DNA of 63,748 bases, filler included, from Licmophora abbreviata (taxonomy: Eukaryota), in NCBI GenBank assembly GCA_900291995.1. It is 18 parts of 18 records of this genome, joined end to end, with 100 filler letters (N's around TTAATTAATTAA, not from the genome) between each part and the next. Parts side by side here need not be neighbours in the genome. Positions count along the whole stretch, not along the records: positions 9,812 to 12,593 come from OLMU01001886.1; 17 more parts are not named here. One strand, written 5' to 3'. Position numbers and translations under genes: made by a program. The notes under the pieces were generated by a model. It saw only the letters and a program-made list of their open reading frames with translations, ran no database searches and was not told where the DNA came from. Positions within the stretch are counted from its first letter, which is position 1. Each line of letters begins with the position of its first letter. This document shows positions 1,515-17,081 of this stretch, one piece after another.

Positions 1515-3468
1515 TCAACCGATCTCATTGGCGGCCAGACGGGAAATTGCGTCACCACTGATTTCTTTACGGCCTGAAGCCCATGTGGCGCGTGCTTTCA
1601 TAGCTACGCGTTCGAGAACCTCTTTTGGTGGACGTTTGGTGGCCGCAGGCCGCATTCCGTCTTCGTGGAAGAGATAGAGACGAGAAGCAAATGTTTCGAA
1701 AGGAAGTGACGCCTCTCCGAAACGCTCTCCGCAGCCGTGGGTTGAAACCAGAGCGCCGTCACCCCAGTCCTGACCCGAGTCATTGTTGGGATTGTAGAAA
1801 TAGACCCGCATCCTGCCGTCGCGATCAGGGGCAACGCGCAGGATCGTGATGGCATGCCAGCCAACGAAGCGACCGGCCGCATNNNNNNNNNNNNNNNNNN
1901 NNNNNNNNNNNNNNNNNNNNNNNNNNTTAATTAATTAANNNNNNNNNNNNNNNNNNNNNNNNNNNNNNNNNNNNNNNNNNNNCGGATCGTCGTTCCGGTC
2001 GGCGCAGAGCCGCCCCATCTCTGCATAAATTCGATCAAGATGCGGGACCATCACTACCGAAACGGGATCGGCGTCCAGAGGTGCGCCCAGGGCAAGCCCT
2101 GCAGGCAGATCGCCGGCATTGATCGCGCGTCCCTCGAAATGCATCATCACGGAGTCGATTCTTGCTGCCTGCGCAACAAGATGCAGCAGGTAGTCGGGAT
2201 CGTTTTGCGCCCACATGGCAATGGCGCGGGCAGATTGACAGGTCGGGTTAGCCCCTTGCCCCACGCCCAAAGGCTGGCCCAGCACCTGAATGCAGCCGGC
2301 TAGCAACAGGTCGGCGGGGGGCGCTGCGTGTAGTCCGGCCATGGACAGGCGCTCGGCGACAGGTTTGCATGGTTCCAGTTCCAGTTGCCGGCGAAAAGCC
2401 GGAGCGATCGGCGCATGATGAAGGATGCCACGATCGAGCATCAGCGACATGCCGTAGACTGCCTGTGCGGTGGCAGGCTGAACGGCCCTGCGGATCAGCT
2501 CGATGACAAGGCCGCGATGTTGCTGGAGACAGTCGCGACCCGTGGTGCCAAGGCCGAGCGTATCCGCGATCATGCCATCATGCTCGGTATCCAGCACCCA
2601 GCTCAGAAAGGCGGCATGATAATCCGAGACAAGACCAGTATCATGCATTGCCCGTGCAAGGCCTTGCGCCTCGTGACGCAGGTCCGTCTCGTCCATCACG
2701 GCAAGCCGCTCTAGGTAGATGCCCAAGCCCGGGTCGCCCATGCAAGCGGACGTCGGACCAAACAGCGCAGAAACAAGTCTGTCTGCACCAAGGCGCCGGT
2801 CACCGATCTCGCTACCGCGCTCGGACAATGTGATTGCGATCTGCGCGATCATATCTTTGGCATGAGCCACCTGGATGGGGCGTTGACGCAGGATACGCCA
2901 GATTTCATCGACCAATTCCCCCAACACATCCTGAAAGCCCACATGCTCAGCCAAATATTGGAAAAGCGCGTTGGTTGTCGCCTGTAGCGATCCTGCCGCG
3001 CGGTCCGCCTCAGCCGTCGTGCCGAAGAAACGCCGCATATTGAGCGCCAGCACTTGGGTCAGAAACCGTTGGGCGGCGGCGGCATGAATGTGGGGGTGCT
3101 CGAACTCGCCCTTCGCCACGGCGAGCAAGCGAAGCAGGCTTACGGCCTCGATGGCGACCGAGGACGGCGCTCCTTGCTCAAGTGTGCCGGCAANNNNNNN
3201 NNNNNNNNNNNNNNNNNNNNNNNNNNNNNNNNNNNNNTTAATTAATTAANNNNNNNNNNNNNNNNNNNNNNNNNNNNNNNNNNNNNNNNNNNNATTCGTG
3301 CAGAGTAGCAATCCCACCCGGGACAGCCATCAGGCGCCACACCACGTCGAGAACTTGAGCCTGAAACCGGGGCTTGGCAAAAGGCCGGGCCTGTTCAAGC
3401 CGTGCTAGCGGCCCATTGAGCGTGGCGACGAGGCGCGCGGCCTCGTCTCCATAAGTTTCTTCGCTCAT
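1515..3468 (-). CDS. large hypothetical protein with a C-terminal papain-like cysteine peptidase signature (split by gaps 1883-1982 and 3194-3293)
   Basis: Three consecutive minus-strand fragments; GQGANPTCQ (Cys codon 2238-2240), GWHAITILRV (His 1854-1856), YFYNPNNDSGQDWG (Asn 1791-1793). Confidence 0.7.
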
Positions 3469-3489
3469 GCGTGATACCCGCCAATCTGG

Positions 3490-4716
3490 TTATACATAGA
3501 AATCAAGTTCTTCCTGTTCCTTGAGCAGATCTCGCAGATGGTGCGGATCCGGCCCGAAGAAATACACTAGTCCCCAATGGGTACCGAAAGCGCTGCGTTT
3601 TGTCACTTTCTGCTCCATCGGTTCAGCCAATTCATGGAATTCGAAATACGGATTCTGTGCCGTCTCCGCCGGGATCTCCATCCGTTCGACGACTCGCCGA
3701 CGCGGATAGGCTCCGAAACATCCCGAGTGGCCCTTGGCATCTTTGACTGGCGTCGGAAAGAAAGCATCAAGCTCCTCGCGCGTGGTTTTGGGATCAAATG
3801 CCAGCACGATTCCTTGATAGCCGTTGAACCCATATGCTCGCTCGATCAATTCCAGCGCGTTGAAACCGGGCGGCCGATAGGCGACCTCGCCGAAATACAT
3901 TGTTCCGTCACTGGTCACGAAATATTCGGGGTGGATGAAACCGAAGTCGATATCAAACGCCTTGATCAGTTTGTTGATTTCTTCTTCGATCTTTGGCCGC
4001 CAGGATTCGAGCTCAGGGGTTGCTGGCACGAAGACCGAATAACCGAGCGTCACATACTCGGAAATGTTGAGAAACTGGATTTCACCGTCCTTGATCCAGG
4101 CCTCGACCGCAAACTCCCAGCCGTCCAGATGGCTTTCGAGCAGGGCTGGAAACTCGTCCTGCGAAATTGAATCGACATCTTCGACTGTGCGGATCGTACG
4201 GTGACCAAGGCATCCCGCCTTGTCGAAGGCCTTGAAATGAATTGGGTCGTCCGGATCGCCCTCGAGCTTGAGTAGTGTCTGGTTCACCCGCTTGAGAAAG
4301 CGCACCACATCCGCATGACTGTCGGCTTCCTCGAAAATACCCACGCGAATGCCCGCGAGCTGAGCACGGCGTTTCATCAAGGACTTGTCGCGAAACAGCA
4401 TGGATTGTCCGAGTAGGCGCGGATTGTCGAGCAGCACGGAGTTAATCGCGCCGGCCCATTCAACGGTCTCTTCGTAGAGAGGGATTGCCACGTCGCAGCC
4501 CTCGTCTTTGAGGATCTGCGCGATCTCATGGGATCGTTCGTTCAGCCGATCAAAATTCCAAGCGATAAAGGGAATGTCGTTGGCCTTGGCATACTCTTCG
4601 GCCCATGATGGCGCGACAATTACGTAACGGCGATCAAACCGGTCAATGGCGTCAATGGCGTTCAGCGACCAGCCGAGGATCGCTACATAGCCTTTGTCCA
4701 AATTTTTTTCAGTCAT
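3490..4716 (-). CDS. ATP-grasp carboxylate-amine ligase (L-amino-acid-ligase-like)
   Basis: FRDKSLMK, HFKAFDKAGCLG, LLESHLDGWEFAVE, HPEYF...FGEVAYRPPG ATP-grasp motifs; ATG at 4716 with upstream AAGG. Confidence 0.85.
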   Translation of the reverse strand: MTEKNLDKGYVAILGWSLNAIDAIDRFDRRYVIVAPSWAEEYAKANDIPFIAWNFDRLNERSHEIAQILKDEGCDVAIPLYEETVEWAGAINSVLLDNPRLLGQSMLFRDKSLMKRRAQLAGIRVGIFEEADSHADVVRFLKRVNQTLLKLEGDPDDPIHFKAFDKAGCLGHRTIRTVEDVDSISQDEFPALLESHLDGWEFAVEAWIKDGEIQFLNISEYVTLGYSVFVPATPELESWRPKIEEEINKLIKAFDIDFGFIHPEYFVTSDGTMYFGEVAYRPPGFNALELIERAYGFNGYQGIVLAFDPKTTREELDAFFPTPVKDAKGHSGCFGAYPRRRVVERMEIPAETAQNPYFEFHELAEPMEQKVTKRSAFGTHWGLVYFFGPDPHHLRDLLKEQEELDFYV

Positions 4717-5565
4717 GTTTGGCCTTTCGTCGGGTGTCGGGAAGGCGAGGGGCGCGCCAGCGCGCTTCTGTCTCTGCCGCCAAGCGATACTGGGGCGCAG
4801 TCTGCCCAGAGGTTGGGTGTGTTGGACGCATAAGAGCCGCGCCACTGTCCGAATATAATTAGTATAACTAAGTTAATTTGCAAGGCTTGCGGTTGTGACG
4901 GAGCCTGTTTGCTGTTTTTTGGTCTTTTGGAATAAGGATATTATCCCGGTAACGTGGTTGTTTGTAATTTCTTGAAGCTGTCAAAGGTCAAAAGATGGCG
5001 GATATTATTTAAATTAAGCTAAATATAAAATCAATCGTTTCGATGTCATCGAAGATTGGCTGTGCGCTGCCCATTGGGCAAGGTGAACCGCCAGTTACAT
5101 GCGCCTGCGCCAAACGTGTCGTGGGTCAGAGACTTTACTTATGTCGCGACATGGCAGGGGGTCGTCGGGGCCGTTTCCATAGACCTGAGCGTCGGCGTCA
5201 CTCTCTCTGGCCCCTTTTTGGCAAATCCGTAGGCGCCGGGAATGATTCGTCGCTTGGCAAACCGGCCCTTGAAGAAAGAAATTGTAGCGCGTTCAAGTAT
5301 AGTTCCGAAAAATTTGGGAGTTTGTTTCCCCGAAATGCACTCTAAGAGTGCGGGTAGGGATAAATAATCCCGTAAAAGGGCGTGACAGTCCTGCGTTTAC
5401 GCTTTGAATGGCGCTGATCCTTTAGTATCGGGCGAAAATGTGTCATAAAAAGGTCAATTGCGTGAGCGCCAATAAAAGCGCCAACAAGACTGATTTTATG
5501 AGCCAGGTTTCGAGCAGATTTTTTGGTTCATCTGAACCGAGCGAAGACAAAAAGGGATTTGAAAG

Positions 5566-6198
5566 ATGATTAGGAAGACATTTCTTGCAGCCATCATGTT
5601 TGCTTTGCCGGGATTGGCATCCGCAGCCACAGTCACCGAGATCAATGATTACGCGACTGCCCTCGGTCAGGTCGATCCGTCGGACTCGCTTGTCTTGCCG
5701 GGCACCTGGACTGCGGCGCCACTGACCATTAGCCCTGATGCAAGCGTGAGCGGGCAGTATCGTTCCCCCTATGAAACCGCCAGCACTGCTGTCCCGGGTA
5801 TCGAGGCAGCAGCGGGCTACTTCAGCGTTGGAGTAGGCTCAACCTACAGCACCAGCAGCAACCCAGCCATTTTGGCGCTCAACAGCCTCTCGAAATCTGT
5901 CAGTCTTTTGTGGGGCTCGCCAGACTCCTACAACACGCTGGACTTGTTGAAGGGTGGCTCTGTGGTCGCCACGATCTTGGGTGGCCAGTTCAACGTGACT
6001 GGTCTCGAGGCATCTTTCGTGACCATCACCGCCGATAACGCGGGTGAGTATTTCGATGGTATCCGGTTCACGTCGACGCAAAATGCCTTCGAGTTCTCCA
6101 ACGTGACCGTTGCGGCTGTGCCACTTCCTGCGGGTGGGCTTCTCCTGCTTGGCGGTCTCGGGGCGCTTGCCGGGCTTCGCCGCAAGACCAAGAAGTAA
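5566..6198 (+). CDS. VPLPA-CTERM sorting-domain surface protein
   Basis: Signal peptide (...LASAAT); C-terminus AVPLPAGGLLLLGGLGALAGLRRKTKK. Confidence 0.9.
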   Translation: MIRKTFLAAIMFALPGLASAATVTEINDYATALGQVDPSDSLVLPGTWTAAPLTISPDASVSGQYRSPYETASTAVPGIEAAAGYFSVGVGSTYSTSSNPAILALNSLSKSVSLLWGSPDSYNTLDLLKGGSVVATILGGQFNVTGLEASFVTITADNAGEYFDGIRFTSTQNAFEFSNVTVAAVPLPAGGLLLLGGLGALAGLRRKTKK

Positions 6199-6223
6199 CG
6201 CCAGCTTTGTAAACTATGGAAAT

Positions 6224-6252
6224 GGCCTCGGGAAACCGGGGCCTTTTCTTTT
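6224..6252 (+). terminator. Rho-independent terminator
   Basis: GGCCTCGG-GAAA-CCGGGGCC followed by TTTTCTTTT. Confidence 0.8.
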
Positions 6253-6380
6253 CGACCGTCACGCTCTTTGGTGAAGCTCCGCACCAAAACTCGAGCAACC
6301 CCTCGGGGCACTTTCGGTCAGGGGCAACCCGTGCGGCGCATCGGTTCAAGGATCGGGAGGCGTTGGCTGGGGTGGTAGGA

Positions 6381-6564
6381 GACCTTCGAAGCCGAAGATA
6401 ACCATCCGAAACCCCCGACGACGCTCCCGAGTGGGGCATTAAGCGGGGGCAAAAACAGAACGGAAGGGTCCCGCGGGTGACACGGCCGGGGAGAGCCGAG
6501 GCGGGTGTCTCACCCGATCCGAACGCTTTAAAGCAGAACGGTTGGGCGGAGGTGGCAGGCGGTT
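6381..6564 (-). repeat. copy 1 of a ~185-bp non-coding repeat (inverted relative to 9527-9711)
   Basis: Its reverse complement matches 9527-9711 except at three small patches. Confidence 0.95.
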
Positions 6565-6653
6565 CCGCTGGGTGGGTCGAGGGCGTGAGAATGATAACGG
6601 GGACAGCCTTGATCAGGCCATCCCCGCTTCTTCCAAATCTCGAGACTGTGTTG

Positions 6654-7337
6654 TTAAGCCTGCGCGGCCCCCTTTTGACGGCGCCGCAGCCACGCCAGTC
6701 CGCCGATACCGGTCAGGAGCAGCGGAAGCCCTGCGGGCAGGGGGATTGGGGCGGTTGTGTCAGTATCGGTGTTGAAGTTGTCAAAGGCGATGCCGATCAG
6801 CCTTGATCCACCCGAGGTCGTGCCTGTGATTTCAATTGATGAGATCAATCCAGACAAACCACTGAATCCGATCCGAGTAACCTGCCGATTGCCGGCGAGC
6901 GGATCATTGCCGTCGAAAAAGATGGACGCAAGTAAGTTGCTGCCCGCGTCAAATGCCTTGAATGTGAACTCTTCCAAATCGTTCCCGGACCCATCAATGT
7001 CCGCGACATCAAAAGAAGCTTCGGACACGGCAGTGACGTAATTGATACTCAGGCTCGTTGTAGTGCCAAAATCGGACGTCAGGAAATAATCGCCGAATGC
7101 ATCGCTGGGGTCCGGCGTGTCGTTAGGTACAAAACCATCCGCATTCCCGCCGACCTTGACAACATTGAGACCGTTTGCGCTGCTGAAAGTAATGCCCTCT
7201 GTCGGAAACGAGGCATTGTTCCCGAGCGATGTGACGTTTCCCGAGTAGCCGGTCTCGAAGTCAATGAAAGCTGCGTTGGCAGCACCGGCTGTAATGAACA
7301 CAGCTGTAGCTGCAATTGCTGACTTAAGTGTAAACAT
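6654..7337 (-). CDS. VPLPA-CTERM sorting-domain surface protein
   Basis: GGAGG RBS; signal peptide (...AANAAFIDFE); C-terminus APIPLPAGLPLLLTGIGGLAWLRRRQK. Confidence 0.9.
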   Translation of the reverse strand: MFTLKSAIAATAVFITAGAANAAFIDFETGYSGNVTSLGNNASFPTEGITFSSANGLNVVKVGGNADGFVPNDTPDPSDAFGDYFLTSDFGTTTSLSINYVTAVSEASFDVADIDGSGNDLEEFTFKAFDAGSNLLASIFFDGNDPLAGNRQVTRIGFSGLSGLISSIEITGTTSGGSRLIGIAFDNFNTDTDTTAPIPLPAGLPLLLTGIGGLAWLRRRQKGAAQA

Positions 7338-7557
7338 AAATAATAGCCTCCGAATTCAATATGGTCGGACGCTACCACAATTATCCGCGTTTGTTAAACG
7401 CTCGCTGAAAAAAGTTTGTTCCTGTTCGGGCAACAATGTGTCCAAAATATGGTCGCTGCTTTCTTCACCGGAGCATTTGCGCAAAACGATCACTCCGTTC
7501 ACCCGAAAACCGAGGAAACCTCCGCATCTATAACGATAGCAATCAAGGAGGTTTCTC

Positions 7558-7683
7558 ATGCTCATCAAAGTCTTGGCGTGGCTGTTCGCGCCCCCGAAGA
7601 AGACCCGCCGGAGTTCCGGCCTGACCGACCAGCTTCGGGGCTGGTTCGTGCTGGCTCTGCTGCTCCTGATCGGGGCGGCCTGA
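7558..7683 (+). CDS. 41-aa hydrophobic peptide (MLIKVLAWLFAPPKKTRRSSGLTDQLRGWFVLALLLLIGAA), below the ORF-track cutoff
   Basis: AAGGAGG RBS at 7545-7551, ATG 7558, TGA 7681-7683. Confidence 0.55.
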   Translation: MLIKVLAWLFAPPKKTRRSSGLTDQLRGWFVLALLLLIGAA

Positions 7684-7686
7684 CCC

Positions 7687-7753
7687 GTGCCCCGTCTCGA
7701 ACCCGACGCGGTGGTCGTCATCCGAGCCTTCGATGACGTCCCCGAACACCTGT
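7687..7753 (+). CDS. start of a small hypothetical protein (MPRLEPDAVVVIRAFDDVPEHL...), truncated by gap
   Basis: GTG 3 nt after the previous stop; open until the gap. Confidence 0.45.
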
Positions 7754-7853
7754 NNNNNNNNNNNNNNNNNNNNNNNNNNNNNNNNNNNNNNNNNNNNTTA
7801 ATTAATTAANNNNNNNNNNNNNNNNNNNNNNNNNNNNNNNNNNNNNNNNNNNN

Positions 7854-8718
7854 GGTCGGGCTGTTCTCGTCCAAGTACCGGGACCGGCGGGTGACGTCGC
7901 TCACGCGGGACGACGGACGCGAGTTCCTGGGTCTGATCGCGCGGCTGTCTCCGCTGATCGGGAAAGTCCCGGACACCCGGCGGATGGGGCTCGACCAACT
8001 CGTCCGCTGGTCCGATCGCGGCACCCGTCGCATCTCGGCGCGGACCCGCAAGCGCATCTGGTCGCAGGTAAACCACTTCCTGGATTGGGCGGTTTACGAG
8101 GGCCACCTTTACGCGAACCCGTTCCGGACCGTCCGCTTCGAGGGGAAGATCAAGCCCGCGCCCTACGCCGTGCCGACCGACGACGAGGTGCGCCAGCTGT
8201 TGGCGTCCCGGGACCCAATGCTCCACGACCCGCTCAAGGTCTGCCTGCTGACGGGGATGCGGTCCGGCGAGGCGCTCGGGTTGCTGCGGGAGGACCTGGT
8301 TCGTAAAGGCAATCTGGGCTGGTTCGTCTGGGTCCGCCCGAACGTCCTGCGGGAGCTCAAGACCGACGCCGCCGAACGGTTGGTGCCGCTTCACCCGGAC
8401 CTGGAGGCGCTCCTGGGTGACCTTCCGTCGGAGGGGCCGCTGTTTCCGGAGCTGTCGGTGAACGTCGTGACCAAGCGGTTCGCGGACCTGCGCAAGAAGC
8501 TGGGGCTGGAGCGTCCCGGTCTGGTGTTCCACTCGACCCGCAAGTGGTTCATCACCCAGTGCGAGCGCACCGGCGTTCCGGAGCACTTCACCGCGTCTCT
8601 GGTCGGGCACAAGTCCGCGCGGTCGGAGAACGGGATCACCTACGGCATCTACTCGGCGGGCATCTCCGACGAGCAGAAGCGCGGGATCGTCGACCAGATC
8701 CGGCTTCCGTCATGCTGA
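7854..8718 (+). CDS. tyrosine recombinase/integrase (5' end lost in gap)
   Basis: Catalytic set TGMRSGE (R), LKT (K), HSTRK (H-x-x-R), LVGH, TYGIY (Y). Confidence 0.92.
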
Positions 8719-8885
8719 TACCGGACATCGAGGCGTTCGAGGAGCGGGCCGCCATCGCCGAGTACGACGGCGGTCTGTCCCGGACGGCGGCGGAGGACCT
8801 CGCGGCGCGTCGGCAGGGCTTCACGGATCGGGAGCACTACTGGCGGTGGTTGGCGGAGTACGTGGTGGCGCGTAAGCTGCCCTGA
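8712..8885 (+). CDS. 57-aa helical hypothetical protein (EAFEERAAIAEYDGGLSR motif)
   Basis: ATG 8712 overlaps the integrase end; motif recognisable from mobile-element small proteins. Confidence 0.7.
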   Translation: MLIPDIEAFEERAAIAEYDGGLSRTAAEDLAARRQGFTDREHYWRWLAEYVVARKLP

Positions 8886-8892
8886 GAGAACG

Positions 8893-8929
8893 GCCCCGGC
8901 TGGCGATGGTTGGCCGGGGTTTCCTTTTG
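8893..8929 (+). terminator. probable terminator of the integrase operon
   Basis: GCCCCGGCTGGC-GATG-GTTGGCCGGGGT (with GU pairs) followed by TTCCTTTT. Confidence 0.55.
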
Positions 8930-9188
8930 AAAGGAGGTCGGAGATGGCGAAGACATTTGGAGTGTTCAGGAGCGTGGTGTTACTCTGCGGGCTCAGTAAA
9001 GTGCTGGTGTCCGAGAGATTAATATCGCGTGTCAACTTCTCATTCAAAAATATGGGGATCACCCAGCTGAGATATCGCGCTTCCTCTATCTAGCCGAAAT
9101 TTTCTTGACGTATGACCGAAATTTAAGTCTTTTTAACGCTATTAGACGTTCTGAATACGATTTTTGAATACTATTTTGGGAGTATGAA

Positions 9189-9467
9189 ATGCTTTCTAAA
9201 ACACTTTCCACTTTCGCCATAGTGTGTCTAATGTCGGGATGTGCTCCAATGATTTCGGGTACAATGAATGCGAGTACGACCCCAGAACTTGTACGAGCGG
9301 AGACTGCTAAACACTTCGGTGTCTCGACAAGCCGCGTTCGGATCAGCAATTACAACAAAGGCATGTTGGCGACACAGTACCAAGCTCGCGTCAGAGGTGT
9401 GCTGTATAATTGCCAATATTACTATGGCAACGTGGTTTGCAAACGCCCAGGGGAGGGGCAACTTTGA
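9189..9467 (+). CDS. small lipoprotein
   Basis: GGGAG RBS; lipobox LMSG-C; markedly low GC. Confidence 0.75.
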   Translation: MLSKTLSTFAIVCLMSGCAPMISGTMNASTTPELVRAETAKHFGVSTSRVRISNYNKGMLATQYQARVRGVLYNCQYYYGNVVCKRPGEGQL

Positions 9468-9526
9468 CGTTTCTGGGGTCTTATAGCCGTTTGGTTTCGA
9501 AGCGTTCATCCTGACATCAAGCGTTT

Positions 9527-9711
9527 AACCGCCTGCCACCTCCGCCGAACCGTTCTGCTTTAAAGCGCCCGATCCCCCGTGAGACACCCGCCTCGGCTCT
9601 CCCCGGCCGTGTCACCCGCAAGACCCTTCCGTTCTGTTTTTGCCCCCGCTTAATGCCCCACTCGGGAGCGTCGTCGGGGGTTTCGGATGGTTATCTTCGG
9701 CTTCGAAGGTC
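9527..9711 (+). repeat. copy 2 of the ~185-bp non-coding repeat (runs into a gap)
   Basis: Inverted match to 6381-6564. Confidence 0.95.
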
Positions 9712-9811
9712 NNNNNNNNNNNNNNNNNNNNNNNNNNNNNNNNNNNNNNNNNNNNTTAATTAATTAANNNNNNNNNNNNNNNNNNNNNNNNNNNNNNNNN
9801 NNNNNNNNNNN

Positions 9812-11173
9812 TGGGACGAGGTGTTCGAGGGAGGCAGCGGGAAGAGGCCCGGACCCAAGCCGAAGGCGAAACCGCGTGACATGCTCAAGGTCGTGCTGCT
9901 GGACCTCTACGTCGCCTGGACGGTCGATCCCGAGCTGTCGATCGGTGTCGATCTCAACCTGCGAAAGTGGGTGGCCGGGAGCCGGTACAACGCCCTTCAT
10001 CTTTCTCGGGCTGTTCCCGGTATCATCCACCGTCTGTCGGACGTGGGTTTGATCGACCTGTCCGTCGGCAGCTACGCGGGACCGGGTGCGAGCACCAACC
10101 GAACCGCCCGGATACGTGCCGCGGAGCCACTTCGAGCCAAGTTCAGGGAGGCTAGGTTCGGTCGGATGGACGTCGGTCATTCCGAGCGGGAGGAGTGTAT
10201 CATCCTTCGGGACCGCGACGGTAGCCCACTGGAATACGAGGACACCGAAGCCACCGTCGAGATGCGTCGTGAACTTCGAGCCTACAACGACCTGCTGCGA
10301 AGGACGTTCATCGACCTGCCGGGTGTCGAGGAGCCATTCATCGAACGGCGGATCAACGTCGGCGTGAGAGCGGGCGACGTGACCCGCGTTCCGATCTTCC
10401 CGGAGAACAAGTTCGTCCGCCGGGTCTTCTCGAGAGGAGACTGGAACCTCAACGGTAGGTTCTACGGCGGCTGGTGGCAGCAGATCGGGTCCGATCTCCG
10501 CAACACCATCCACATCAACGGCGCCCCCACGGTCGAGGTCGACTTCCGGGCGCTTCACGTGAACATTCTGAGCCTGGAGCAGGGTGTGAAGCTGGAGAAC
10601 GATCCCTACGACCTCCCCGAGAGCATTCTGGACGGCGTGGATCGTTTCGCCCAGCGCGGTTACCTCAAGACCCTCGTCCTCACCGCCATCAACGCCGCCG
10701 ATGAGCGGTCCGCGTATCAGGCCTTCCGGGACAACTACCCGGCGACGGACCCGGCGCGACGGTTTCGGAACGGCGACCTGAAGCGACTGCTGGATGCGTT
10801 CATCCGACAAACGCCGCAGTTGGCGGACGCCTTGTTTAACGATCAAGGTATCCGCCTGATGAACGTGGATGCCCGGATCGCGGAAGGTGTTCTGAGAGGG
10901 GCGACGGCACGAGACCTCCCGGTTCTTTGCGTTCACGACAGCTTCATCGTCGACTACCGAAAGACCAAGTTACTCAAGTTCCTAATGGCCTTGGCCTCGG
11001 GACAGGTGGTGGGCAGTGTTCTCCCGATCGCGAACGACTGGATGGGATGGGACGAGGTCGATGAGGAACGACGCGACGACTACGCCGAGGCTCGTCGGAT
11101 CAAGCCAACGCGAGGGTCCCTGGAGCGTCGGGCGGCTTTCGAGACTGTTTACGGACAGATCGCGCAGGGTTAG
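9812..11173 (+). CDS. hypothetical protein with PolA/T7-RNA-polymerase-superfamily palm motifs (5' end in gap)
   Basis: DWNLNGRFY, VEVDFRALH (motif A), RGYLKTLVLTAIN (motif B), VLCVHDSF (motif C) in the correct order. Confidence 0.7.
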   Translation, partial: WDEVFEGGSGKRPGPKPKAKPRDMLKVVLLDLYVAWTVDPELSIGVDLNLRKWVAGSRYNALHLSRAVPGIIHRLSDVGLIDLSVGSYAGPGASTNRTARIRAAEPLRAKFREARFGRMDVGHSEREECIILRDRDGSPLEYEDTEATVEMRRELRAYNDLLRRTFIDLPGVEEPFIERRINVGVRAGDVTRVPIFPENKFVRRVFSRGDWNLNGRFYGGWWQQIGSDLRNTIHINGAPTVEVDFRALHVNILSLEQGVKLENDPYDLPESILDGVDRFAQRGYLKTLVLTAINAADERSAYQAFRDNYPATDPARRFRNGDLKRLLDAFIRQTPQLADALFNDQGIRLMNVDARIAEGVLRGATARDLPVLCVHDSFIVDYRKTKLLKFLMALASGQVVGSVLPIANDWMGWDEVDEERRDDYAEARRIKPTRGSLERRAAFETVYGQIAQG

Positions 11174-12585
11174 CGTGGTAGGTTCCGGAGGAAGCGGTAG
11201 ATCTCCACCATGGCGCGGGTGTCGAGTTGGCAATACCGCAGCAGGCCCTGCGCAATTCGATCGGCTTCCGCAGGGTCCGCGGCAATCATCCGCTTCCAGG
11301 CGTCCATCGCCGCAGTCCCGTCCTGCACCTCGAGGCCTTGGTAGTTGAGCTCCGGGCACACCACGGGCAAGACCTTCTTGATCGAAGTCGACCCATCAAA
11401 CCTCGCGTCGACATACCCGGTTTTGAACGGGTCTTCCAAGTCGACCATGCGGTTGTTGATGTTGCGCAGGAAGGCTTGCTTTTCCGGGAACACTGCCGCC
11501 ATTGCTCTGTTTTGCGTACGCTCAAACGCTGCGTGCCAAGAAACGACGCTTCCCTCGGGGCCGATGTCTTGCTCAAGCTGCTCGATCAAGCGATCCGGCA
11601 GACGAGCTTCTCTCTCCAAGTATTCACGATGTCGCAACTGACCATCCTCGTCCAGAACGTGGAGGGAGTACTGGATCGGAAAGTGCTTATGCGGGCTCGC
11701 TCTGTCGATGATCGGAACCGCCGATGCGTAGGTCTCGTAGTCGAGGAAGTAGAGCGGGAATTCGAGATCGTCGAGGAACTGGTCGATTACACCAAGATCG
11801 ATCTGAGCTTCACCTGTGCGGAAAGCTTCCAGCACCGTTCTTTGTTGCGCCGTGAGATTTAGGTGTACGGGTACGTCCTCTAGCCGGAAGATACCCTGGT
11901 CCACCAAACCCTCGAGGCGCAGTCCGTAGAAACGTGGCAAGCTGTAGATTGATGGTCGCGGTATCTCGGGATTGAAGTGATCGAAGGCGTCGCAGTGCTT
12001 GCCGCGTGACTTGTAACGACAGGAGCAGCCGTCACGGTTGATATTTACGGCGAGCGAGGCGAGTGCCGCGTCGATCTCACGTTCCGTCTCCGCTTCGATT
12101 TCGGCAACGCGATCAGTGATGTCCTGGAAGACTAACAGTTCGACCGGATTGATGTGCCCGTCGCGGACGTAGGCACCGTCGAGGTGGACCAGGAATACCC
12201 GATCAATCGCCTGTCCGGCGCGCTCGGCGCATATCTTCTGGAAACAAGCGTCCTTGAGCTGGTAATGCGGCGCCTCCGTTTTTACTCGAGTCGAGGATTT
12301 GACCTCGTAAAGGGTTGCACCTCCATCGCCACCACCTTCTAGACCATCAACCCGGGCGAATAGTCCATCTTGTGTCTCGAAGACTTGCTCGAAACGCACG
12401 TTATCGTTCCCGCGCTCTTCGAAATATTGGCGAAAGTACCTTTCGACCTCACGCCCTTCATTGGCCAGCTTTTGCTGAAATGCCGAGAAATCACCCTCTG
12501 TGAAGTTCCCAGGATCACGCTTCGCGAGCCAGAACGATTTGTTACAGCTCAAGTATTGGATGAAGTCCGTCTTTGTAAGCGGCAT
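11170..12585 (-). CDS. DUF2779-type nuclease (N-terminal PD-(D/E)xK/Cas4-like plus C-terminal RNase H-fold exonuclease-like domain)
   Basis: ARVDGL...LYEVKSST...DACFQ; FLDYET...WHAAFE...DL...SIKKVLP...YCQLD. Confidence 0.8.
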   Translation of the reverse strand: MPLTKTDFIQYLSCNKSFWLAKRDPGNFTEGDFSAFQQKLANEGREVERYFRQYFEERGNDNVRFEQVFETQDGLFARVDGLEGGGDGGATLYEVKSSTRVKTEAPHYQLKDACFQKICAERAGQAIDRVFLVHLDGAYVRDGHINPVELLVFQDITDRVAEIEAETEREIDAALASLAVNINRDGCSCRYKSRGKHCDAFDHFNPEIPRPSIYSLPRFYGLRLEGLVDQGIFRLEDVPVHLNLTAQQRTVLEAFRTGEAQIDLGVIDQFLDDLEFPLYFLDYETYASAVPIIDRASPHKHFPIQYSLHVLDEDGQLRHREYLEREARLPDRLIEQLEQDIGPEGSVVSWHAAFERTQNRAMAAVFPEKQAFLRNINNRMVDLEDPFKTGYVDARFDGSTSIKKVLPVVCPELNYQGLEVQDGTAAMDAWKRMIAADPAEADRIAQGLLRYCQLDTRAMVEIYRFLRNLPR

Positions 12586-12693
12586 TATGTGATNNNNNNN
12601 NNNNNNNNNNNNNNNNNNNNNNNNNNNNNNNNNNNNNTTAATTAATTAANNNNNNNNNNNNNNNNNNNNNNNNNNNNNNNNNNNNNNNNNNNN

Positions 12694-13042
12694 AGGGATC
12701 GGGGCGGACATGCAGATCGAGCATGTCCTGTTCAACGATCGCGGTGCGGCTGCCCGACAGGAGCGAATAATGCACCCAGCCCCCCGCGCCGTCGCGGTCG
12801 CGCACGCGGCGCCAGTGGCCATGCTCGGCGGTGATCTCGAGCGGCACGTCGCGGCGCTTGAAGACCCAGTCGATCCGGTGGGTCAGGCTGGGACCACGGC
12901 GCACATTGCCTTCGCTCGCCTTCATCGACACGAAGCGCGGCAGGGGAAGATTCGTGACCGGGCCACGATCTTGTTGCTGCGCCTGGCCAGCAGATCCGAC
13001 CGACACCAACAGCGCGCACAGCACCACAAGCAGTGTTTTCAT
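12694..13042 (-). CDS. SH3-domain secreted protein (DUF1058-like), 3' end in gap
   Basis: Signal peptide; LPLPRFVSMK...NVRRGPSLTHRIDW...WRRVRDRDGAGGWVHYSLL. Confidence 0.85.
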
Positions 13043-13153
13043 TTCACGTGATCCGATTTCTGCCCGACGATCTGCATGGGGTTCTTGTGCCCCGTCCGTT
13101 CCTGCGCCAGTCTGGCAGTATTGCGCAGGCAAGAAAAGAAAAAGGAGGGGGAC

Positions 13154-14140
13154 ATGTCATCTGGACGCTTGAGTGTTGTCGTTACGCGACGCTTGCCCGA
13201 GACGGTCGAGAAACGGCTGAGCGAACTTTTCGACGTGTCGCTGCGGGAGGATGACACCCCGATGAGCCGCGCGGACCTGGTCGAGGCGGTGCGGACGGCG
13301 GATGTGATCGTGCCCACGCTGACTGACCGGATCGATGCCGCGTTGATCGCGCAGGCCGGAGATCAGCTTCGGCTGATCGCGAATTACGGCGCGGGGGTGG
13401 ACCATATCGACGTGCACACGGCGCGCCAGCACGGCATCCTCGTGTCCAATACGCCGGGTGTCTCAGCCGATGATACGGCGGATATGGCGATGGCGCTGAT
13501 CCTGGGGGTCACGCGGCGGATTCCCGAAGGGCTGGCGGTGATGCAGGCGGGGGGCTGGGACGGCTGGTCGCCCACCGCGCTTCTGGGCGGGCGTCTGGCG
13601 GGGCGGCGCCTTGGAATCCTTGGGCTTGGCCGGATCGGGCAGGCGGTGGCGCGGCGCGCGGCGGCGTTTGGCATGCAGATCCATTACCACAACCGGCGCC
13701 GGCTGCGCGAAGAGACCGAACAGGAATTGGGCGCGACCTATTGGGAAAGTCTGGATCAGATGGTGGCGCGGATGGATGTGCTGAGCCTCAACTGTCCGCA
13801 TACGCCCTCGACCTTTCATCTGATGAACGCGCGGCGGCTGAAGCTGATGAAGCCGGATGCGGTGATCGTCAATACCAGCCGCGGCGAGGTGATCGACGAG
13901 AACGCGTTGACGCGGATGTTGCGGGCGGGCGAGATCGCGGGGGCGGGCCTTGATGTCTATGAGAACGGTCCCGAGGTGAACCCGCGGCTGCGCGCGTTGC
14001 CGAATGTGGTGCTGCTGCCGCATATGGGATCGGCGACGGTGGAGGGGCGGGTCGAGATGGGCGAGAAGGTGATCCTGAACATCAAGACGTTTCAGGACGG
14101 CCACCGCCCGCCGGATCAGGTGGTTCCGGCGATGCTTTGA
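13154..14140 (+). CDS. 2-hydroxyacid dehydrogenase (D-glycerate dehydrogenase/glyoxylate reductase)
   Basis: GAGVDHID, NTPG, GILGLGRIG, NTSRG, LPHMGSAT. Confidence 0.9.
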   Translation: MSSGRLSVVVTRRLPETVEKRLSELFDVSLREDDTPMSRADLVEAVRTADVIVPTLTDRIDAALIAQAGDQLRLIANYGAGVDHIDVHTARQHGILVSNTPGVSADDTADMAMALILGVTRRIPEGLAVMQAGGWDGWSPTALLGGRLAGRRLGILGLGRIGQAVARRAAAFGMQIHYHNRRRLREETEQELGATYWESLDQMVARMDVLSLNCPHTPSTFHLMNARRLKLMKPDAVIVNTSRGEVIDENALTRMLRAGEIAGAGLDVYENGPEVNPRLRALPNVVLLPHMGSATVEGRVEMGEKVILNIKTFQDGHRPPDQVVPAML

Positions 14141-14201
14141 GGGCTGGGAGCCCACGCCGCATGCCGGGTTATGCCGCGCCATAGACGGCAAGGAGACAGG
14201 C

Positions 14202-15339
14202 ATGAGACTGCCGGCCATAGGATTGATCCTGTTCGTTTTTTCCGGAGCCGCGCTGGCGCAGCAGGCCGCGGATGCCGTGGCGCCCGAAGGGGAAGGCGCG
14301 GGGCGCGTCGCGGCAACGCCCGAGCTTGAGGCGGCGCAGGCGGCACGGGATGCCGGGCGCCCTGCGGAGGCNNNNNNNNNNNNNNNNNNNNNNNNNNNNN
14401 NNNNNNNNNNNNNNNTTAATTAATTAANNNNNNNNNNNNNNNNNNNNNNNNNNNNNNNNNNNNNNNNNNNNGGGCCGCCCTCGTCGGGGGGGGCTGACGG
14501 TGGGGCAGATCCTTGGCCTGCTGGAGCCCTTCGACCTGGCGGCGATGGGGCCGCAAAACGCGCAGGCCTGGCGGCTGATCGGGGATGCGAGCCGCCTCGC
14601 CTTTGCCGACCGAGGCCGCTACATGGCCGATGAGGATTTTGTCCCCGTTCCGGTCAAGGGTTTGATTGCAAAGGAATATATTGAGGAGCGCAGCCAGCTT
14701 TTGCAGGGCGATGACGCGCTGCCCGAGGTTGCGCCGGGACGGCCCGAGTTCGATCACAGCCTGAACCTGGCTGATGACATCTCGTTTGAGTTTCCGTCAA
14801 CCACGCATATTTCGATAACGGATCGTTACGGCAACGCACTGTCCATGACCTCGACCATCGAGAATGCGTTTGGGTCGCGAGTGATGGTGCGGGGGTTTTT
14901 GCTGAACAACGAGTTGACCGATTTTTCCTTTCGATCTCATGAAGAGGGCGTTCCGATCGCCAATCGGGTGGAGCCGGGAAAGCGCCCAAGATCGTCCATG
15001 GCGCCGACCATCGTGCTGAAAGACGGCGCGCCGGTGATGATCGTCGGCAGCCCCGGAGGTAGCCGGATCATCGGCTATGTGGTCAAGGCGATCATCGCGC
15101 ATCTGGACTGGAAAATGGATGTGCAACAAGCGGTTAGCATGCCCAACATGGTCAACAGGTTCGGCGTTTTCGATCTGGAGGCGGGCACATGGGCCGCCGA
15201 TCTTGCGCCGGATCTGGAGGCGTTGGGCTATGAGGTCAGGATCGCGCCGATGGTGTCGGGGCTGCATGCGATATCGCTTGGCGAGGGGTTGCGCGGCGGG
15301 GCCGATCCGCGCCGCGAAGGCATCGCCCTGGGCGACTGA
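14202..15339 (+). CDS. ggt: gamma-glutamyltransferase (split by gap 14372-14471)
   Basis: Signal peptide; STTHISI nucleophile Thr; LNNELTDF; GKRPRSSMAP; GSPGG; GGADPRREG. Confidence 0.9.
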
Positions 15340-15565
15340 AATTCTCCGAAAGGCCCGAAAAAGGGCTTCGGTATCACGTCGGTATTGCGTCGGTGCGATA
15401 TCGGTGCGAGCGCGGCACGAACTGCTGTAGGGCGCGCGACCCCCGGACAGGAGTGTCGGGAAATGCGAAGGCGTCGGTTTTGCGCGTTCTTGTGTCGGCT
15501 GGACCCACCTTGGCGCAGCAGGACTGCTAAACAGGGCGCAATCGTAAGCCAAGGAGTCGCTGCTC

Positions 15566-17081
15566 ATGAAGACCCACGTCAAAGCCCTTATCGTCGGTGG
15601 CGGCGCCATCGGCACGTCGATCGCCTATCATCTGGCCCGGTTCGGCTGGGACGATGTGGTGCTGCTGGAGCGCGACGAGCTGACCAGCGGATCGACATGG
15701 CACGCGGCGGGGCTTTTGCCGCTGTTCAACATGTCCTACGCGGTCACGCATATCCACGACTATTCGGTGAAGTTCTACAAGACGCTGGAAGAAGAGACCG
15801 GGCTGAATGCCGGGTTCTCGGTGGTGGGTAACCTGCGCATGGCGCAGACCGATGCGCGGATGGATGAATACCGGGTCTATGCCTCGACCGCCGAGACGGT
15901 GGGGGNNNNNNNNNNNNNNNNNNNNNNNNNNNNNNNNNNNNNNNNNNNNTTAATTAATTAANNNNNNNNNNNNNNNNNNNNNNNNNNNNNNNNNNNNNNN
16001 NNNNNGGATGCGCCCGAAAGCTTCGATCACGACGCGCGCAGCTTCCGCCGGGGGGGCTGGTGGTCCTATGCGGTGGAAGAGGCGAAGGCGGTGCGCGAGG
16101 GTGTGGGCCTGATCGATGCGTCGGCCTTTACCAAGCACACGGTGAAGGGACCGGGCGCCACGGCGTTTCTGGATTGGTTCACCTGCAACAAGCTGCCCAA
16201 GATCGGGCGGATCAACCTGACCTACGCGCTGACGCCGGCTGGCACGACGCGCACCGAATACACCATCGTGCGGCTTGCCGAGGACAGCTATTACCTTGTT
16301 TCGGCGGGCGCGCTGACGGATTATGACGGCGATTACCTGCGCAAATGCGCCGAGGACAAGGCGGCCGAGTTCGGTTACATCGCGATCGAGGATGTGACCA
16401 CGCAATGGGGTGTCTTTGCCATCGCCGGTCCGAAATCGCGCGATGTGCTGAAAGAGGTGGTCAAGGATGCCGAGCCGGACACGGTGCTGTCCAACAAGCG
16501 GTTCCCGTGGCTGAGCCAGCGCGACATCGAACTGGGCATGTGCCCGGTGCGCGCGATCCGCGTGGCCTATACCGGGGAGTTGGGCTGGGAGCTGCATCAT
16601 CCGATCGAGATGCAGAACTACCTGTTCGACCTGCTGGAAAAGGCCGGTGAAAAGCATGGGCTGAAGCTGGTGGGCGCACGGGCGCAGAACTGGCTGCGGC
16701 AGGAGAAATCCTATCGGGCCTTCGGCAACGAACTGGGCCGGGATGCCACCCCGCTCGAGGCTGACTTGCCGCGCTTCGTGGATCAGTCCAAGGCATTTCA
16801 GGGCAAGGACGCGATGAACGCGATCGGCGTGCGGTTCAAATGCGTGACCGTGTTGATCGACGGGCCGCAGGATGCCGACCCTTGGGGTGCCGAGGCGCTC
16901 TATGATGGCGATGAGCGTGTCGGGCGCCTGACTTCGGGGGGGTATTCGGTGGCGTTCGGCAAGTCGATCGGCATGGGCTATGTCAGCACTGACAAGGCCG
17001 AGGTGGGCCAGACGCTGCAGGTGCGTATCCTGGGCGAGCTGTGGCCCGCCGAGGTGGTGCAGGACAGCCCCTATGATCCGG
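15566..17081 (+). CDS. FAD-dependent oxidoreductase with GcvT domain (dimethylglycine dehydrogenase-like), gapped
   Basis: IVGGGAIG, LTSGSTWHAAG; C-terminal AYTGELGWE and LRQEKSY GcvT motifs. Confidence 0.85.

Follow-up and report, generated by a model that had tools for sequence, protein, structure and literature searches.

Here, we report a polymerase gene of the TV-Pol type in a 63,748-nucleotide (nt) stretch of the Licmophora abbreviata assembly GCA_900291995.1 (hereafter, the window) and the integrative islands that carry its relatives at tRNA-Gln(UUG) genes of Rhodobacterales. The protein, which adds to a family first proposed in 2008, joins a winged helix to a minimal family-A core whose metal site of two Asp residues (D244 and D376) appears intact from its sequence, and it is probably the element's own primase-polymerase, acting on island DNA. 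The observations behind this reading are the predicted fold, the conserved catalytic residues, the island ends, their repeats, and inversions between related genomes. The searchable literature yielded no published description of the tRNA-Gln island or of a three-site, two-arc architecture; as far as it was searched, the invertible two-arc island around TV-Pol is undescribed.

Protein structure and conservation

The window joins 18 contigs (1,076 to 14,301 bases) by 100-base linkers of N and TTAATTAATTAA. The contig with the TV-Pol gene (9812 to 12593; 2,782 bases) holds a plus-strand frame (9812 to 11170) that is open from the contig's first base and stop free over 453 residues, residue i of the visible protein lying at 9812 + 3(i − 1). 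Full-length relatives have 481 to 485 residues and a conserved N-terminal stretch (DP.HSRP.DVHRWSDHPEV); the window protein is therefore about 30 N-terminal residues short. Five public runs (X1 to X5) with differing organism labels contain the 9812 to 12593 stretch, with letter-for-letter identity in X1, X2, and X5; the runs may represent the source culture or have a single bacterial strain in common.

The original prediction, made by reading this DNA, had seen a compact protein resembling PolA and T7 RNA polymerase; its observation is confirmed and its interpretation supported. All four motif strings that it listed (DWNLNGRFY, VEVDFRALH, RGYLKTLVLTAIN, and VLCVHDSF) are present in the translation, and its positions for G215 (10454), D244 (10541), R282 (10655), K286 (10667), and H375-D376 (10934 to 10939) are exact. 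The reference motifs with which it compared them are real, both in the sequence of T7 RNA polymerase (DWRGRVY at 421, RSVTKRSVMTLAYG at 627, and IHDSF at 810) and in Escherichia coli Pol I (TGRLSS at 666, DYSQIE at 705, RRSAKAINFGLIYG at 754, and VHDE at 880). Among 125 relatives (27 to 45% identity), G215, W222, R230, E242, D244, and K286 were invariant, and R216, H249, D264, R282, L290, N294, H375, D376, and S377 were kept in at least 90%, so that both catalytic Asp residues are intact, as had been claimed. Because residues of the catalytic motifs are conserved across these relatives, the motif matches go beyond chance.

Models were generated with AlphaFold2 for the window protein (39-row alignment; predicted local distance difference test [pLDDT], 87.4; predicted template modeling score [pTM], 0.79) and for a full-length homolog that is 76% identical to it (59 rows; pLDDT, 94.1; pTM, 0.91). 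A polymerase fold had been set beforehand as the test on which the idea would stand or fall, and the prediction passed: family-A DNA polymerases alone headed the Foldseek comparison with PDB (best E value, 5e-5). A second aligner, independent of Foldseek, compared 48,161 representatives. Structural alignments to polymerases began at about residues 119 to 128, and the modeled secondary structure placed motif A on a strand (238 to 245), motif B on a helix (278 to 294), and motif C on two strands (371 to 374 and 377 to 381), giving a family-A polymerase domain in which motifs A, B, and C follow one another in the usual order. Upstream, where a winged helix had been suspected, residues 1 to 120 matched winged-helix proteins; no exonuclease or helicase domain was found in the protein, in agreement with the first reading.

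A weak profile alignment with Pol I paired VEVDFRALH with SADYSQIEL and QRGYLKTLVLTAIN with QRRSAKAINFGLIY. In its register, D244 corresponds to D705, H249 to E710, R282 to R754, K286 to K758, L290 to F762, and N294 to Y766, and the motif spacings agree. The change of the motif-B Tyr to Asn, noticed at the outset, thus holds in this weak register and also by spacing (K286 + 8 = N294; K758 + 8 = Y766). Compared with family-A DNA polymerases (Klenow, Taq, Bst, and apicoplast Pol), the protein has a shorter polymerase domain (about 310 versus about 410 residues), lacks a 3'-5' exonuclease domain and a PF00476 match, and, by the same weak alignment, has His, Leu, and Asn for E710, F762, and Y766.

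Family membership

The only library match of the protein was phrog_4756, of unknown function (E value, 8.5e-42). NCBIfam gave no family; its sole row (XopZ; E value, 0.16) was judged to be noise. At 90% clustering, 1,309 matches were obtained among 8,000 candidates scored, and among the best 120 of the 1,309, every source name given was "hypothetical protein." At 50% clustering, there were 9,204 representatives (E value of ≤0.001), and species-representative genomes held 470 relatives. An Atlas search returned unnamed clusters only. Distant relatives (about 430 to 450 amino acids; 23 to 29% identity), all annotated "hypothetical," were present in 65 phage records, mostly of large Vibrio and Aeromonas phages. 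In Shewanella phage KASIA (L089), a relative of about 450 amino acids lies between an AAA ATPase and a terminase, with an annotated RNA polymerase nearby; in Aeromonas phage phiA009 (L090), one of about 450 amino acids lies beside a Dam methylase, with a transposase nearby. The neighborhoods in these two phages were uninformative.

TV-Pol was defined in 2008 by Iyer, Abhiman, and Aravind as a nuclease-less family with a hairpin Arg, two palm Asp residues, and a fingers insert of helix-turn-helix type with an Asp and RxxxK (PMC2579912). A subset has an extra N-terminal domain and adjoins resolvases, lambda-type integrases, or IS630-type transposases (PMC2579912). The published species list includes Roseovarius, Paracoccus denitrificans, Sulfitobacter, Oceanibulbus, and Loktanella, and the authors predicted primase-polymerase activity in replicative transposons and linked the family to DNA synthesis coupled with recombination (PMC2579912).

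The window protein shows the conserved Arg (R216) in a pre-palm β-hairpin (modeled strands 203 to 207 and 210 to 218), the two palm Asp residues (D244 on strand 238 to 245 and D376 at the turn of hairpin 371 to 381), and, after the first palm strand, a helix-turn-helix fingers insert with its conserved Asp and RxxxK. It has no nuclease domain, and the setting in its relatives is that of a mobile element with an integrase, resolvase, or transposase, one of the settings of TV-Pol, which is otherwise found with a D5 helicase (PMC2579912). For the thumb, expected to be two antiparallel helices, the models show one long helix (146 to 163 in the window protein; 177 to 194 in the homolog) plus strands. 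The minimal, nuclease-less, family-A-like core is the same as in TV-Pol, and the N-terminal domain and mobile-gene neighbors are as in its subset. Differences from the 2008 account are the N-terminal domain, predicted there to be all helical and modeled here as a winged helix with a β wing, and the tRNA-Gln targeting and inverted-repeat-bounded cassettes, which the main text of that paper does not mention. The replication protein of Zamilon was matched by fold only (Foldseek E value, 1.1e-3; rank 42). Features and genomic context thus fit membership in TV-Pol, with no significant sequence link to a named member. The suggestion of an uncharacterized family did not hold: the features fit TV-Pol, which the original prediction itself had named, and the 2008 paper already covers members from Rhodobacterales.

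Island architecture in relatives

Locus comparisons kept 80 loci, nearly all from Rhodobacterales. The survey of homolog neighborhoods that had been proposed as a check found integrases, resolvases, and tRNA-Gln islands around the relatives. Of the 60 loci that span at least 6 kb, 31 had a gene with DUF6538 and Phage_integrase domains, 12 had a resolvase, and a few had an IS630-like transposase. A tRNA-Gln(TTG) gene occurred in 31 of the 80 loci with its 3' end toward the TV-Pol gene, and wherever tRNA, TV-Pol, and integrase were found together (17 of 17 loci), TV-Pol was in the middle, nearest the tRNA. Directly after the DUF6538-type integrase, and always following it, 24 of the 80 loci had an open reading frame (ORF) of 57 to 62 amino acids (EERAAI.EYDGGLSR...), which overlaps the integrase stop codon and could be a directionality factor.

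The relatives' islands measure 6 to 8.5 kb and lie at tRNA-Gln(UUG). In L007, a perfect 23-nt direct repeat, one copy of which is the tRNA 3' end, bounds a 6.1-kb island (integrase, 62-amino-acid ORF, and TV-Pol). An 18-nt repeat bounds 8.45 kb in L001, the closest relative with genomic context, and a third, inverted core lies there between the TV-Pol/DUF2779 part and the integrase part. Inverted cores bracket TV-Pol in 13 loci, each time as the outermost part of inverted repeats of 244 to 514 nt; L005 is a fourteenth case. Eight of these 13 cassette repeats, three of them in complete genomes, are at least 99.5% identical. The cassette arm extends 107 to 262 nt into the TV-Pol 5' coding region in five loci, and the integrase segment is likewise bounded in eight of nine loci (arms of 60 to 471 nt). 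Compact cassettes of 2.2 kb hold TV-Pol alone.

Read from the tRNA, the parts are thus arranged as tRNA-core-arm', TV-Pol cassette, inverted full site (arm'-core-arm), integrase segment, and arm-core. Because the three att cores of many genomes alternate in orientation, long inverted repeats that are nearly identical bound both segments, each of which can flip. Between genomes, TV-Pol and integrase occur in all four combinations of orientation relative to the tRNA, and in two Shimia genomes (91 to 94% identical), the integrase segment is inverted between them. The simple form with two direct cores was seen in four loci (L007, L008, L016, and L022). In resolvase-linked and SAR116-type relatives, direct repeats frame the island and TV-Pol is not enclosed by inverted ones, so the invertible architecture is a trait of the tRNA-Gln islands and not of the whole family. 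A purine-rich tract upstream of TV-Pol in L001 was rejected as a conserved feature (1 of 65 loci).

Just outside the far att core, L001 (18297 to 20033) and L041 (18534 to 20267) have a conserved gene of the large serine recombinase type (about 578 amino acids; N-terminal resolvase domain). In L071 (Rhodobacteraceae bacterium HTCC2150), one 21-kb stretch holds two TV-Pol copies that form direct repeats (975 nt at 94%), together with IS630-like transposase genes and an inverted repeat of 1,002 nt (99.5%).

Proposed role and alternatives

The Rhodobacterales island, integrated at the tRNA-Gln(UUG) 3' end, encodes TV-Pol, a DUF6538-type tyrosine integrase, and a coupled 57-amino-acid protein. The integrase would excise and invert island DNA; TV-Pol would use its winged helix to bind element DNA, on which it would initiate and extend synthesis during recombination or afterward. 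We infer an element primase-polymerase from the polymerase fold, the intact active site, the DNA-binding domain, the fixed place at the att arm, the inverting segments, and the activity of CcPol; enzymatic activity, de novo priming, the use of island DNA as template, and any extrachromosomal replication would all be part of that reading.

According to the accessible part of its report, CcPol of SCCmec extends primers, primes with deoxynucleoside triphosphates (dNTPs) only together with the OB-fold protein MP, works with a helicase from the same operon, and is dead as D169A and D324A mutants; its authors knew of no other characterized TV-Pol in 2020 (PMC7581432). None later than 2020 was found in the literature searched. 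As far as that part of the report goes, CcPol and the window protein are alike in being exonuclease-less A-family polymerases on recombinase-driven islands, with catalysis dependent on two Asp residues in CcPol, which its authors place in or near TV-Pol.

An element-specific RNA polymerase would use the winged helix to read a repeat-arm promoter and the core to transcribe island genes in the manner of T7. This is improbable: all known single-subunit RNA polymerases are much larger than the protein, which is half the size of the T7-like enzymes, has no RNA polymerase Pfam match (PF00940), and yielded no promoter-specificity elements of T7-like type; its best structural matches are DNA polymerases; and the sole assayed TV-Pol, CcPol, prefers dNTPs in the accessible part of its description. 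T7 RNA polymerase uses a Tyr for ribose selection, and the residue is Asn here. Islands of 6 to 8 kb also hardly need their own transcriptase.

The repeats might instead serve only as a recombinase-operated expression switch, each flip connecting TV-Pol or the integrase to outside promoters such as that of the tRNA or disconnecting it from them, with a nonreplicative polymerase that, for example, fills gaps after recombination. All four orientation states do occur among genomes; in one, tRNA and TV-Pol are codirectional, and in another, integrase, small ORF, and TV-Pol are codirectional, as in the four simple islands. At five loci, however, the arms include the TV-Pol 5' coding part and its upstream region, so the gene keeps its own upstream DNA in either state, and the idea overlaps the primase-polymerase reading in that Iyer et al. 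link TV-Pol to recombination-coupled DNA synthesis (PMC2579912). A pure switch is about as doubtful as an RNA polymerase.

Cargo of use to the host, for example a repair or translesion polymerase, is less credible again, since TV-Pol has an unchanging place beside the att site in 17 of 17 islands, is the sole gene in compact cassettes, stays constant while the cargo varies among islands, and has relatives in large phages. A catalytically dead DNA-binding protein that retains the polymerase fold has the accessible text of PMC10061031 on its side, where some mobile-element Pol relics are reduced to a possibly inactive RRM core, and is very improbable given that the metal-binding Asp pair, hairpin Arg, and RxxxK are kept across 125 diverse sequences.

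Several results weigh against the primase-polymerase reading. Pfam gave zero families at an E value of ≤10 (and hence no PF00476 or PF00940 match), and sequence and profile searches of PDB gave no match. The hhalign comparison of the 125-row alignment with seven Pol I polymerase domains was weak (probability, 1.4%; E value, 0.038), and that of family profiles A1 or A2 with single Pol I or T7 RNA polymerase sequences fell below 1% probability; neither A1 nor A2 had a match in phage Ma-LMM01, which has been named as carrying a TV-Pol, although the tool itself treats an empty answer as uninformative. At the position of Pol I E710, a Glu blocks ribonucleotides; this residue and Y766 appear as His and Asn here, and the choice of sugar is unreadable from the sequence. 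By the accessible part of its report, CcPol cannot prime without MP, whereas no conserved MP-like, SSB-like (single-stranded DNA-binding), OB-fold, or helicase neighbor of TV-Pol occurred in 60 loci; neither the downstream OB-fold gene nor the operon helicase of SCCmec was conserved there, and the small ORFs that were searched match no family. Split copies of TV-Pol in L033 and L079 indicate that the gene can be lost. Neither an excised circle nor mixed orientations within one culture were seen in assembled contigs, where repeats longer than reads hide isomers. In the window, which fits the relatives' layout, the cores and arms next to TV-Pol are placed by analogy, and the evidence for TV-Pol activity is in silico.

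The yeast 2-micron plasmid encodes Flp and has FRT sites in 599-bp inverted repeats. The island might be its bacterial counterpart, although we consider this extension of the primase-polymerase reading unlikely: an excised circle with two inverted attP copies of about 400 to 1,000 nt, a TV-Pol arc, and an integrase arc would be amplified by double rolling circle, with TV-Pol starting replication and integrase recombination between the inverted sites flipping one fork, so that each initiation gives many copies. Shared with the plasmid are a tyrosine recombinase, a target site in each long inverted repeat, two arcs, and both relative orientations, the isomers being seen here between genomes. The island differs in being bacterial, integrated at a tRNA, equipped with its own polymerase, and known from assembled sequence alone; the likeness is one of architecture, not of descent. 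If true, the parallel would explain the position of TV-Pol against the att arm, the arms staying identical, and all four isomers, and replication-coupled amplification by a three-site, two-arc architecture would be a new way of raising the copy number of bacterial islands.

TV-Pol is still without a Pfam model and, apart from one atypical Staphylococcus member, without biochemistry. As a test case, the roseobacter island is compact and culturable: sequenced marine strains have a 2.2-kb cassette with this gene alone, set within perfect inverted repeats. It makes testable both partner-free DNA priming by a bare family-A core with a winged helix and the polymerase's job on a recombinase-driven element.

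Island features in the window

The proposed integrative element is borne out by the relatives and by the att core in the window (Table 1); since the window is a chain of short contigs, adjacency to the integrase is drawn from the relatives.

Table 1. Positions in the window of the TV-Pol gene, its motifs, and the island parts
Feature	Position	Strand	Remarks
TV-Pol-type polymerase gene	9812..11173	+	5' end cut by contig end, about 30 codons missing; stop 11171-11173
N-terminal winged-helix domain	9812..10171	+	Residues 1-120 of visible protein
Family-A-like polymerase core (thumb, palm, fingers)	10166..11101	+	Residues about 119-430
Hairpin Arg R216 in NGRFYGG	10457..10459	+	Counterpart of GR in TGRLSS / DWRGRVY
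Motif A VEVDFRALH, catalytic D244	10532..10558	+	H249 at Pol I E710 position
Motif B / fingers helix R282xxxK286...L290...N294	10655..10693	+	Aligned to RRSAKAINFGLIYG in weak Pol I profile alignment
Motif C VLCVHDSF	10922..10945	+	H375-D376 at β-hairpin turn
DUF2779 gene, 471 amino acids, cassette cargo	11170..12585	-	PF11074 at 6.2e-35; converges on TV-Pol, 3' ends overlap by 4 bases
Tyrosine integrase, 5' end cut by contig end	7854..8718	+	PF00589 at 1.3e-8
57-amino-acid ORF (EERAAIAEYDGGLSR...)	8712..8885	+	Overlaps integrase stop
att core, 18-nt copy of tRNA-Gln(UUG) 3' end, without tRNA	6363..6380	-	Perfect match to L001 core, 0.06 expected by chance
Integrase segment, left inverted-repeat arm	6381..6564		Pairs with 9527-9711: 133 nt at 98% + 41 nt at 98%
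Integrase segment, right inverted-repeat arm	9527..9711		Ends exactly at contig end
Linker	9712..9811		By analogy (L017, L020, L038), probably att core (+), cassette arm, first ~30 TV-Pol codons
Linker	12594..12693		By analogy, probably second cassette arm, att core (-), tRNA-Gln (-)
Chromosomal flank, three contigs	12694..17081		Syntenic with L001 flank upstream of tRNA-Gln

The integrase is 59% identical over 285 amino acids to the DUF6538-type integrase beside TV-Pol in L007; no family was found for the 57-amino-acid ORF. No tRNA-Gln gene occurs in the window, so the tRNA and the TV-Pol-adjacent cores and arms must lie in the two linkers that flank the TV-Pol contig. In three public runs, the assembled contig extends the 2,782 bases of the window contig by 30 nt at either end and leaves the gaps unbridged; as these contigs stop 30 nt past the window contig ends, the breaks are repeat boundaries.

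Read in reverse, positions 12717 to 16983 are colinear with the L001 flank, which stops 272 nt short of the tRNA-Gln of that locus, and the TV-Pol/DUF2779 and integrase pieces match L001 forward with their order kept. With the flank reversed and the segments forward, both segments are individually flipped relative to L001. Synteny with L001 also suggests that six contigs (3294 to 17081), at the least, stand in true genomic order and orientation.

A DUF2779 homolog has the same place in L001 (58% identity), lies elsewhere in L003 (45%), and is missing from the other scanned loci. The DUF2779 protein gave weak Cas4/PD-(D/E)XK-like (E value, 0.015) and RNase H-like (E value, 3.3e-4) signals; a putative nuclease beside the nuclease-less polymerase was seen in the window and in only 2 of the 60 scanned loci of at least 6 kb. 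The integrase segment has a further ORF (92 amino acids; 9189 to 9467, plus strand), which lies between the 57-amino-acid ORF and the repeat arm, matched no family, and has a lipoprotein-like signal (…LMSGC…). Two ORFs without a Pfam match (5566 to 6198, plus strand, 210 amino acids; 6654 to 7337, minus strand, 227 amino acids) flank the att core. Each begins like a signal peptide and carries a C-terminal (V/I)PLPAG motif, then a hydrophobic stretch, then a basic tail; we take this pattern to resemble PEP-CTERM/VPLPA-CTERM sorting signals.
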